A stretch of 64,000 nucleotides of DNA from Waddliaceae bacterium (GTDB lineage Bacteria; Chlamydiota; Chlamydiia; Chlamydiales; SLFE01). Below are positions 53,772-57,675 of this stretch, in pieces. The stretch spans positions 288,001 through 352,000 of the forward strand of contig CAVYRW010000004.1 of the NCBI GenBank assembly GCA_963771045.1, in the 5' to 3' direction. The translations under genes were made by a program, and so were the position numbers. Below the pieces are notes generated by a model, which saw only the letters and a list, made by a program, of their open reading frames with translations, searched no databases and had not been told where the DNA came from. Position 1 is the stretch's first letter. Every line of letters starts with the position of its first letter.

Positions 53772-54314
53772 AATATAAATTTGATTGCTTGCAAACAGGG
53801 TTTGAATAATGACAAAAATTCAGTATGCAATTTTTTTATTAACGGTGTTCCTTTTTACTAGTCATCTAAGTGCGATTCCACAACAGCCTTCAATTACTGT
53901 TAACCAATGTTATACAACTAAAGAAGCTGTTTTTTTGCTAGTCGGTACACGCTGGCTTAGTGCAGAAGCTGTAAATTTTACAACAGATGGGATTTGTTCT
54001 TTACTTTGAAAGTAAGCCAGTTTGCTTAATTAGCTTTTGGCAAGAGGATGATTCCACTGCAAAATTTAAAGAAGGCTGGGATGTCTATAAGAAGTATGAG
54101 AAATTTTTTCCCCATGAGAACTATATTTTTGATGAGTGTAAAAGGAATGTATCTTCTAAGTTGGCCGTACATATTAATCTTATAAATAAAAAAGGATTAG
54201 TTGAGTGTATAGAAAAGTATTCAAATATTTTTAAGGATGTGTTGCATCGAGAGGCGTTGTTGCATAAATCACCACTGAGACCACCGAGCTCACTGAGAGA
54301 TTATGAGAGAGGAA

Positions 54315-54722
54315 TTAAATGATTAGACGCCTAATCCCATTTTTTAGAAGTTTTACATTGAAATTGATGAGCAAACCTCTGCCACCACCATTATGCTTAA
54401 GATAGGATAGAAGTTGGGCCTCATGAACAGGCAAGAGATTGGCCACAGATTTTATCTCCAAAATAACCTTATCTTCCACTATCATATCGATCCGGTAGCC
54501 TGAGTCTAGCTTTTTATCACGATAAATAATAGGTACTGGTATCTGCCGGTTAACTTTCAAACCCGCAAGGTTCAACTCGTAGCAAAGACAAGTTTCGTAT
54601 GTCGATTCAAGCAAGCCTGGACCTAATCTTCGATGAACTTCAATCGCAGCACCTATGATTTCCCCTGTTAAAAGGTCATTTCTTTTTTGGTTGGCTTCTT
54701 CAGTTGTGTGGGTACTAGTCAT
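54315..54722 (-). CDS. GxxExxY protein (PD-(D/E)XK nuclease-like)
   Basis: EVHRRLGPGLLESTYE, RIDMIVE, LEIKSV, AQLLSYL, GLLINF. Confidence 0.92.
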   Translation of the reverse strand: MTSTHTTEEANQKRNDLLTGEIIGAAIEVHRRLGPGLLESTYETCLCYELNLAGLKVNRQIPVPIIYRDKKLDSGYRIDMIVEDKVILEIKSVANLLPVHEAQLLSYLKHNGGGRGLLINFNVKLLKNGIRRLII

Positions 54723-54806
54723 CTTTTCTCCAAAAAGGGCGAATGCGAGCTTGCCGACAAATACCTAATACTCTAATTTTTAGTTGCAACAAATTGGAGG
54801 ATCAAG

Positions 54807-55751
54807 ATGAAGGCAAAATATCGCATTCGCAACTGGAACGACTATAACAAATCTCTTATTCAAAGGGGAAGCATAACTGTTTGGTTTTCTGAAGATGCTA
54901 TCAATAAGTGGATGGCTCCAAAAGAAATAGGAAAAAAGGGGCGTCCAAAACTCTATTCTGATGACGCTATTCTCACCGCGCTCATTATTCGATCGGTTTT
55001 TCATCTTCCATTGAGAGCACTCGAAGGATTTTTGACATCTCTTGTTATGATTTTATCTGTTGGTTTATCGATTCCTTCTTATACTCAAATTTGTCGGAGA
55101 GCTAAGTTGTTGGGGCAAGAGTTGAAGAAACTTTCGAAAAAAAAAGTCACCAATATTGTAATCGATTCAACCGGTTTGAAAGTGTACGGAGAGGGTGAAT
55201 GGAAAGTTAGGCAGCATGGAATCAGTAAAAGGCGAACATGGAGAAAGCTCCATCTGGCAGTCTGCCCTGACTCTCACGAAATTATTTTCGAAATTCTTAC
55301 TGAAAATAACGTTGCAGATTGTGAAGTGTATCCAAAACTTCTCGAGGTAATGCCGAAATCAGTTAAGCGCACATATGGAGATGGGGCTTATGATACTAAG
55401 CGATGCTATGCTGCAAATGTAGTTCACGGCTCAATTCCTATTATTCCACCCAATAGGAATGCTGTTTTTCGAGAAAACATATCTCCTTCTTGGAAGATGC
55501 GGAATATCAGTTTGCTGGAAATTTCAGGTTTAGGAGGTGATGATGATGCAAGAAAATTATGGAAAAAGTTGAAAGGTTATCATCGTCGATCACTTGCAGA
55601 AACAGCCATGTTTAGATTTAAACGATTCTTTGGAAATGATTTAAGAAGTAGAACTCTGGAAACCCAAAGGGCTGAATCAAGGGCAAAATGTGAAGCACTA
55701 AATATAATGACAAAGCTGGGAATGCCTGAAAGTGAATTAATAGCAGCTTAA
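54807..55751 (+). CDS. IS5 family (IS903 group) DDE transposase, apparently intact
   Basis: NWNDYNKSLIQRGS, IDSTGLKVYGEGEW, GDGAYD, YHRRSLAETAM; GGAGG RBS. Confidence 0.93.
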   Translation: MKAKYRIRNWNDYNKSLIQRGSITVWFSEDAINKWMAPKEIGKKGRPKLYSDDAILTALIIRSVFHLPLRALEGFLTSLVMILSVGLSIPSYTQICRRAKLLGQELKKLSKKKVTNIVIDSTGLKVYGEGEWKVRQHGISKRRTWRKLHLAVCPDSHEIIFEILTENNVADCEVYPKLLEVMPKSVKRTYGDGAYDTKRCYAANVVHGSIPIIPPNRNAVFRENISPSWKMRNISLLEISGLGGDDDARKLWKKLKGYHRRSLAETAMFRFKRFFGNDLRSRTLETQRAESRAKCEALNIMTKLGMPESELIAA

Positions 55752-55863
55752 ATCAAATCTCTCATATTCTCTCTGTGCGCTCTTGTGAGCTCTGTGGTTA
55801 ATTACGCAACAAAGCCGCATCGAGATGTCGATGGGAACAAATTTTTAAAAGAGATCGAAAATG

Positions 55864-57261
55864 GAGGATGTCCCGTTTTTAGTTGAAATTCGGTGACTCC
55901 ATATACCAGTTTACGCAACCTTTGTTTTTATTTCACTCTGAATTCGGATTATCCTTTCCCTTACCTCTTCGATTGAAAAATATCCTTTAACTTTTCGAAA
56001 TCTTTTTTCTGCATCCAAGAGGGTTGTCCCCAACTATCTTTGCGCCATTTTACCCTTTGTTTGAATACGAGTTATACGGCCCATACGCCGGCTTGTATTT
56101 GAGAACACTGATTCAATCGGATTTGTGGAATGCAGTGTCTTCCTCAAACGAGGAGGCACTTTTAAACAATGCACCGTGAGGAGTTCTTCAAAACACTCAC
56201 GGAGAGATTCCGCTGCAGATGGGTTGATTGTTTCAAGCCAACTCTCCAATTTCTTGAGTTCATTCTTAGCATCTTCATACTCAAGGCAATTTATTGCATT
56301 TCGGAAGCGATGATGCGCTTCTTTTCGATATTTTTTGGGAAGATGCTTTTGGATATTTCTGTCTTTATGAAATCGTACATCTTTGATGTATAAGTAATTT
56401 CCCAAACCTATCCTTCAGAGCCTTAATGATCCCTTTTCCTCCATCGGTTATAAAAAGTATTTTCTCATCAAGCTTTAGTCCTCTGCGGTCGAGATTGTTC
56501 AACAGCTCTTGACAAATCACATTATTCTCAGTTGCACCTTCCCAAAAACCAAGAGAATGCTTATTTCCTTCAAGATCAATTGCCATTGCCACAATAAAAA
56601 CTTTTCCTGCCAGATGATAACCATCAATGAGGATAGCGAAGGGAGAAAAACTGCTTAAATCTCTATCTTTTAATTCTTTAAGCTGTTTACTTGTCGCCGC
56701 TTTCAAATGCCGTGAAACAGAGGATTTAGAAATACCGAAGTGGTCAAGCAAACCGTCCAGCGCACCCTCATACTCCCTGCAAGAGATCCCCTTTAAAGCT
56801 TTTTCTAAGAGATCATCAGAAAATCTATCCTTATTATTTAGTTCCTGATATACAGAGAGTTGGACTTCCTTTTTATCCTTCCGCAAACGTGGCTTTTTTA
56901 CTTTTAATTTTTCTCCTCCCACATAAACAGAACCCGCCTGGGATCCCCATTTCTCCCATCCGGGCAGTGGATCGTATTTAGGCCCGGCAAGCATTTCTCT
57001 TTCTGAAGAAAAAAGAAACTCGATCAAGCATTTCTTTAAGGAAATAAAAAACTGATCGAAATCGTCCTTAGCAGCTCCAATGAGATAAGCAATTTTCTCT
57101 TCGGGGCATGCAAATGAGAGAAGATCTGTTGATTTATTCTGTGATGTGCGACTATTCATCTTGTGGCTCCTTTGTTTTTTTGTTTTTTGTCAAAATTACA
57201 TATTGACTATAGGAGCCACCTCTTTTCAAGATAAAATTTCAACTAATTTTGGGACATTCTC
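55864..57261 (-). mobile_element. IS256-family insertion sequence
   Basis: TIRs GAGGATGTCCCGTTTTTAGTTGAAATT / GAGAATGTCCCAAAATTAGTTGAAATT; 9-bp TSD TCGAAAATG at 55855 and 57262. Confidence 0.9.
55911..57159 (-). pseudogene. IS256 transposase with a frameshift (~56370) and an in-frame TAG (56034)
   Basis: GISKSSVSR, ILIDG, ITDGGKG, QRCTI/HKDRN, STNPIES; reading continues past TAG as LGTTLLDAEKRFRKVKGY. Confidence 0.88.
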
Positions 57262-57675
57262 TCGAAAATGGCAGGCATCTCATTGATTTAATCGAGGACA
57301 ATGATATTCTTCTTGGGATTCTTTTAGGTTATGGTGAAGAGTCATCGAAGCTCTATTATAGAAAGCAGATCGAATCCAAGGAAGATGTGGCACTTGATAT
57401 CCCTTATATAACGATAACATCGGAAAATGTTAATGGGATAGAAATATGCCCTGTTGCGTTTAAAGGAAATGCTCATTCGAAAGAGGTTAAAAAGATTTAT
57501 TCGAAGTTCCACAATGAGTGGAAGTTGTTTTGGGAATTTTATCTTGAGAAAAATCAGGATTCAATGAACTTTTTCCTTGAACCCTTTTGCAAATAGCGGT
57601 TCTGCAGAGCAACATTAGTAGCTGCCGCCAGTTATGATGGCGGTCAAAAAAAATGGTGGAAATTTCCGGGTTAAT

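Follow-up and report, generated by a model that had tools for sequence, protein, structure and literature searches.

IS903 itself has 18-bp terminal inverted repeats (TIRs) and a 9-bp target duplication, and its transposase moves the insertion sequence (IS) via the ~18-bp tips. Tn7 has multi-site ends and pairs TnsA with TnsB in one element, with TnsA cutting the second strand. IS derivatives with a passenger gene are termed transporter IS (tIS) in PMC9330008, and PMC10132070 gives examples from the IS1202 group. TnsA is classed as PD-(D/E)XK in PMC3424549, where the function of PDDEXK_3 is entered as "Unknown." GxxExxY/PDDEXK_3 is a very common family of nuclease fold, and the name GxxExxY receives a passing mention in 10.1101/2021.01.26.428298. 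No paper linking the GxxExxY family to repeats was found in the literature searched, nor was its pairing with the heptamer arms described here found in print. As far as found in that literature, the arms and the element that carries them are undescribed; work on small cyanobacterial repeats could be prior art for the heptamer arrays. The nuclease cassette with heptamer arms is thus apparently undescribed, and the IS part alone is ordinary.

Organization and spread of the element

The window (the whole stretch of 64,000 nucleotides that was analysed) contains an IS5/IS903-group IS with a GxxExxY passenger (54253..55816, plus strand, 1564 bp). A 9-bp target-site duplication, GCATCGAGA, abuts both ends exactly (left copy 54244..54252, right copy 55817..55825, both plus strand) and fixes the element limits at 54253-55816. 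The left IS903-type TIR (54253..54270, plus strand, ~18 bp) starts GG..TGTTGC..AA, as do passenger-free IS903-group ends, and is the likely transposase site. It is followed by the left arm (54271..54297, plus strand), three CAC(T/C)GAG heptamers with a 9-nt period (CACTGAG at 54273-79, CACCGAG at 54282-88, and CACTGAG at 54291-97), and then by a purine-rich tail (54298..54310, plus strand) that also occurs in the right end and stops 4 nt short of the GxxExxY stop codon. The GxxExxY gene (54315..54722, minus strand) codes for a 135-aa protein of PD-(D/E)XK fold and is separated by a divergent intergenic spacer without an intact array (54723..54806) from the gene for a 314-aa, IS5-family DDE transposase (54807..55751, plus strand). 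The right-arm purine-rich tail (55758..55770, minus strand) starts 6 nt past the transposase stop, and the right arm, CACAGAG / CACAAGAG / CACAGAG (55771..55798, minus strand), is inverted relative to the left one, with its minus-strand units CACAGAG at 55790-96, CACAAGAG at 55780-87, and CACAGAG at 55771-77; the right IS903-type TIR (55799..55816, minus strand, ~18 bp) completes the element. An IS256-family element in two ORF pieces (55864-57261) lies 47 bp beyond the right end, and the unannotated ORFs 53987-54322 and 57249-57596 may be one gene split by both elements.

The transposase matches NF033579 with 289 bits (cut-off 140) as well as PF13737 and PF01609, of which we take NF033579 and PF13737 to mark the IS903 group; the profile search gives no extra domain. 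The transposase type, the short ~18-bp TIR with the motif of 52 compact relatives, and the 9-bp duplication all place the element in the IS903 group, from whose compact single-gene build it departs as a variant, with a second gene and arms extending it to 1564 bp. Its closest sister transposases (L021, L023, and L047) are 54 to 60% identical and belong to elements with intact compact ends, no arms, and no passenger. The spacer has a weak likeness to the promoter side of the array-free sister L021 (local score 69, shuffle maximum 67), and its local scores with L023 and L047 are within the shuffle range.

The passenger scores 148 bits against TIGR04256 (cut-off 35) and matches PF13366 with an E value of 8e-42, and its GxxExxY and D..ExK motifs make it a member of the GxxExxY/PDDEXK_3 family. 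Among 46 sequences E39, D79, and E89 are invariant and K91 is nearly so, and all four residues are present in this passenger. The nuclease is under purifying selection (pN 0.17 to 0.28 between elements). Its predicted structure has a pLDDT of 93, and Foldseek returns no match at E≤0.001; the best, weak rows are the archaeal Holliday-junction resolvase Hjc (E 0.004, TM 0.42), lambda exonuclease, and SSO0001, the last presumably a Cas4. Searches by sequence reveal no relative in the PDB, no PADLOC family at E≤0.01, so that it does not match known anti-phage defence nucleases, and no TnsA family match in Pfam or NCBIfam, nor is TnsA among the Foldseek rows listed. A match to the family above the cut-off is present in 105 of the 300 Chlamydiota genomes scored.

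This genome (G000) has 16 full copies of the element, which are 0 to 3 substitutions or a 1-bp deletion apart, and 12 of them have a 9-bp target duplication, every one different; the near-identity of the copies together with their distinct duplications shows that the element spread recently. The GxxExxY gene is present in all 16 copies, the interior is inverted in none of them, and GxxExxY matches in the genome are confined to these copies and one chimeric copy. Near-identical copies also occur in one genome of the same genus, one soil-metagenome contig covers the entire element with one difference, and no plasmid record covers 80% of it. Joints of circles, deletions, or inversions were not seen in contigs, which hide rare forms, from 4 of the 20 runs listed, and a single RNA run covers the passenger in part, by a 95 to 99% relative. 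The chimeric copy (C4:1701314-1704285) has a left portion of ~350 bp that is 99.7% identical to the active element and a remainder that is 78% identical; its array units are 8 nt, its passenger is interrupted by a second IS, and a 9-bp duplication surrounds the whole. An internally deleted derivative is at C2:86186-86491, where a deletion starting at the inner edge of the left-arm tail (element position 58) has fused this end to the 3' part of the transposase gene.

Tips, arms, and GxxExxY loci

The preliminary description had noted ends of unusual length, ~59 bp, each built with three heptamer units. The similarity and the units, at the sequences then given, hold up: 54253..54310 and the reverse complement of 55758..55816 agree in 47 of 59 columns, with 11 mismatches and 1 gap. 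The outer 18 bp of the two ends match at 14 of 18 positions, and the inner part alone (positions 19-58) gives an alignment score of 23, which is attained by none of 10,000 random genomic 41-mers (maximum 20, mean −13) and none of 10,000 shuffles (maximum 8). What does not survive is the idea of a single TIR, as each end is composed of an ~18-bp TIR and an ~40-bp arm with its purine-rich tail, and these evolve differently.

This difference is evident from the first 30 nt of the arms in 17 elements with both ends, where likeness is 0.82 within an element and 0.64 between same-side arms of different elements; no permutation out of 20,000 attains the observed value, a count that overstates certainty as the elements are related. 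In the eight elements of group 1 (defined below), arm likeness is 0.80 within elements versus 0.68 between same sides, and the first 16 bp behave in reverse, with 0.77 within versus 0.84 between. The tips are therefore side-specific between elements, as expected of transposase sites. The heptamer pattern is kept at both ends even though synonymous sites are near saturation between elements (pS 0.69 to 0.93), and the arms keep to a word, the two within one element changing together. One long transposase TIR is ruled out by these opposite behaviors of tips and arms and by the sister IS without arms. The spacing from tip to arm ranges from ~0 to 22 nt.

The arms are common at GxxExxY genes. For the locus set, the 80 top-ranking entries among 560 metagenome relatives of the passenger were combined with 30 loci found by searching Chlamydiota; removal of 4 of these 110 as IS-borne or duplicates left 106, counted only where at least 120 nt of flank was available. 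An array is defined as two inward-facing heptamers, with a pattern written after inspection of the flanks. By this definition 69 of 102 genes have an array upstream, 75 of 103 have one downstream, and 62 of 99 are bracketed by arrays, proportions that describe the closest relatives and not the whole family and include some near-duplicates and two loci, L184 and L204, that later proved to be IS-borne. An array in any orientation is found somewhere at 83 of the 99 loci, and 16 of the 99 have none on either side by the strict pattern. In controls, arrays are present in 5 of 156 windows 600 to 800 nt distant and in 5 of 4,100 shuffled windows; counts from a looser survey of arrays across the genome, which were mostly noise, are left out of the results.

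Among distinct compact IS903-group elements with both ends found, many of them Vibrio and Nostoc kin, only 1 of 52 has arrays. This element, L022, has no transposase start but retains a GxxExxY 3' end nearly identical to that of L097, and is a deletion relic of a passenger-bearing element. Passenger-free IS903-type elements in G000, inspected by eye, have no arrays. Most arms have no transposase nearby, and G000 C4:1320136, between genes that we take to be purF and guaA, is a gene-free inverted pair of arms with no IS tip that is missing at the same site in both relatives compared; it is the only IS-free case among four gene-free hairpins in G000, the other three of which adjoin the end of another IS. 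The abundance of arms at GxxExxY loci, their near absence from compact IS, and the tip-free pair together assign the arrays to the GxxExxY system. The enrichment check that the preliminary description proposed therefore comes out in its favor, the motif being common at GxxExxY genes and nearly absent from passenger-free IS903-group ends, and its suggestion of a GxxExxY repeat cassette fused with IS ends is borne out by the 62 of 99 loci bracketed by arms versus 1 of 52 compact elements. Its further suggestion, that the repeats may be sites for the passenger protein, is compatible with the data.

The element has the layout of a normal cassette, with two inward-facing heptamer arrays around the GxxExxY gene oriented as in the 62 of 99 loci, except that the transposase gene is located between the GxxExxY start and the upstream arm and the IS tips are outermost. 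The left arm is the downstream arm of the GxxExxY gene, with the array and orientation seen after 75 of 103 such genes, and the right arm, ~1 kb from the GxxExxY start, is oriented as the upstream arm of free cassettes, in which one arm is also upstream of the gene or within its start. Each arm lies 3' of a stop codon and is oriented identically relative to its own gene, and the end-to-end similarity halts just short of both stop codons.

Several loci show variations of arms and words. Remoter GxxExxY genes at L375 and L378 (G395; 51% and 40% identical) are bracketed by CGCGAAG and CAGGATA-type words, two cases hinting that word and enzyme may co-vary. In the free cassettes L273, L277, L278, and L285 the inverted similarity extends past the arrays into the flanks by up to ~110 nt, which suggests possible copying from arm to arm, and in L180, L205, and L234 an arm and adjoining gene sequence are re-duplicated in tandem. 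The Nostoc record behind L031 (G402) has 80 exact two-heptamer matches versus 1 in the reversed control, and the ends of its IS903-group element are plain.

Arms also occur inside the TIRs (CAGCARTTCCCGCTG) of an unrelated IS, at G000 C4:30151, 856592, 951224, 978133, 1453304, and 1515652, and CAGCARTTCCCGCTG-TIR ends with arms are present in G199 (11 ends; L406, L408, L412, L413, and L415) and G395 (L365 and L367). The transposase of this IS is a 435-aa DDE protein with a weak PF01609 and IS4-like match, and in G000 none of its 3 autonomous copies or its nine 195-bp MITEs carries arms. Both ends of the G199 MITEs do carry arms, and a 9-bp duplication was read in L406 and in L408. No parent carrying a GxxExxY gene was found for the arm-bearing MITEs; a hairpin landing in a MITE would explain them. 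Arms also lie within both ends of a third type, CCCTTACAATT..ACACATC, which has 12 matches in 1 of 401 genomes (G395; L368, L369, and L386-L394) and which such a landing would explain as well.

Origins and explanations

Of 401 Chlamydiota genomes, 32 have a pattern of IS tip plus heptamer word, for which the reversed control gives 3 hits, and two or more heptamers are present in 21 of the 30 loci retrieved. Most of the loci are short derivatives with internal deletions; many of them have 9-bp duplications, and in some a part of one gene or of both is left. Outside Chlamydiota the pattern does not rise above control level, occurring in 6 of 131 genomes of the phylum of the Nostoc genome G402 versus 4 control hits, and in 5 of 131 of the phylum of G403 versus 3, with either gene in 0 of these 11 loci; viral contigs have 35 hits, with neither gene in any.

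The transposase tree was built from 26 rows chosen from 83 after a quick first tree, with array labels set by hand for two loose-pattern false positives (L086 and L092) and one false negative (ownB). Six array-bearing rows, all with arms, form one clade (99/99), referred to as group 1, and the seventh, L243, joins the array-free L023 and L047 (100/95); a single clade for all seven is rejected (AU P=0.0105). The nuclease tree (42 of 127 rows, selected after a first tree; 133 columns) has the same split, rejecting one clade for the 7 IS-borne genes (AU P=9e-5) and also for the 5 IS-borne genes of group 1 (P=0.003). Nested inside the group 1 nucleases are five free cassettes that have two arms but no remnant of a tip or transposase. 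The order tip-arm-nuclease-arm-tip without an intact transposase is found in L234 and partly in L268, and L234 is a possible intermediate in escape or exchange of the gene. The simplest reading of both trees would be at least two fusions in Chlamydiota followed by escape or exchange of the arm-bounded gene. The second fusion (group 2) rests on one partial transposase, L243, and derivatives, and a complete two-gene group 2 copy was not seen among them. A single gain followed by losses in L021, L023, and L047 is compatible with the transposase tree alone.

The element likely carries a second enzyme-plus-repeat system inside the IS. As the best explanation we regard it as probable, with some reserve, that the transposase tips enclose inner arms recognised and cut by the nuclease, the cassette hitchhiking on the IS. 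The transposase would use the outer ~18-bp IS903-type tips to move the whole element. The GxxExxY cassette would have entered the IS just inside the left tip and lost its inner arm, and a copy of its outer arm would have been gained inside the right tip, such that the transposase gene now lies between the arms; entry of this kind may have occurred at least twice in Chlamydiota. The nuclease is proposed to recognise the heptamer arrays and to cut the paired arms. Repair from the opposite arm would keep the arms alike, and through the cuts the gene between the arms could be exchanged or escape from the IS; the cassette would thereby ride the IS while still active.

A different emphasis, to which we give a modest chance, would make the nuclease and arms a module recruited repeatedly by DDE IS, giving an element of two enzymes and two kinds of site, with the nuclease processing ends or resolving intermediates at the arms and also able to carry its own gene in and out. 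IS903-group lineages would then have recruited the module on two occasions, and one or more unrelated IS families probably did so too.

Unlikely, in our judgement, is a passive relic, in which the cassette was captured once per lineage, host template switching copied the arms and homogenises them, and the nuclease has ceased to act on them inside the IS, its retention being due to some other benefit. Template switching between inverted ends could indeed account for the homogeneous arms, but homogenisation alone would not retain a three-heptamer pattern while synonymous sites saturate. Similarly, the similarity ends before both stop codons as would an inverted-repeat expansion bounded by coding sequence, yet the compact, array-free IS903 relatives have no such expansion. 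The free cassettes bear on this reading from both sides, with L273, L277, and L285 having inverted duplications past the arrays, whereas free cassettes nest among IS-borne nucleases. The 16 copies and the contigs of 4 runs, in which rearranged forms were not seen, agree with a relic.

Quite improbable is that the nuclease is an accessory of transposition, cutting the second strand or resolving cointegrates at the arms in what would be an IS of two proteins and two sites, or alternatively that the arms are extra transposase sites. The sisters L021, L023, and L047, at 54 to 60% identity, are intact with neither arms nor passenger, which argues against such a role, even though arms are present in all six members of the group 1 transposase clade and the divergent two-gene layout with arms directly inside both tips appears to have arisen at least twice. 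TnsA and Hjc belong to the same fold family (PMC3424549), which would suit an accessory nuclease, but the transposase has no extra domain, the distance from tip to arm is variable, and most arms are remote from any transposase.

An RNA-level element, with arms acting in 3' untranslated regions as terminators, stabilisers, or transcript binding sites, is very unlikely, since single ends fold no better than shuffles (z of −0.05 and −0.45), no terminator-like site lies within the arms, and free cassettes have an arm also upstream of or inside the gene start, although each arm comes after a stop codon and faces the same way relative to its gene, and gene-free inverted pairs can form hairpins. A terminator or hairpin at the single ends is not supported by the same fold scores and site search.

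Comparison with described systems

The function of the nuclease family is directly testable here, as 1.56 kb unites an intact enzyme, its cognate arms, and a vehicle that was active recently. If fusion with IS ends has indeed recurred, it would amount to one mobile system nested inside another or to a new accessory route in transposition.

The element resembles IS903 in having one DDE transposase, ~18-bp TIRs beginning GG..TGTTG, and a 9-bp target duplication. However, IS903-group relatives are ~1.05 to 1.1 kb, and this element, at 1564 bp, has a divergent nuclease passenger and 40-bp heptamer arms inside both tips. Like Tn7 with TnsA and TnsB, it has a PD-(D/E)XK nuclease (PMC3424549 for TnsA) paired with a DDE transposase in one element whose ends have several sites, but there is no match to the TnsA family and no TnsC-E, and sister transposases occur without a nuclease.

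REPIN/RAYT systems, as presented in PMC3116915, resemble the arms in that short inverted repeats form gene-free intergenic hairpins and are tied to one nuclease-type family. The REPIN/RAYT enzyme is a REP-associated Y1 tyrosine transposase and the repeats are palindromic REPs, whereas here the passenger matches PF13366 and TIGR04256 only, the enzyme is of PD-(D/E)XK type, the heptamers are arranged in tandem, and the unit has been fused into a DDE IS. Within the GxxExxY family, this member differs in being carried in an actively spreading IS.

The element also belongs with the tIS, as the passenger lies inside the TIRs and moves with the IS in all 16 full copies. It differs from them in that its passenger comes with end repeats of its own that now surround the transposase gene, is met again in other lineages, and seems to be exchanged with free cassettes.
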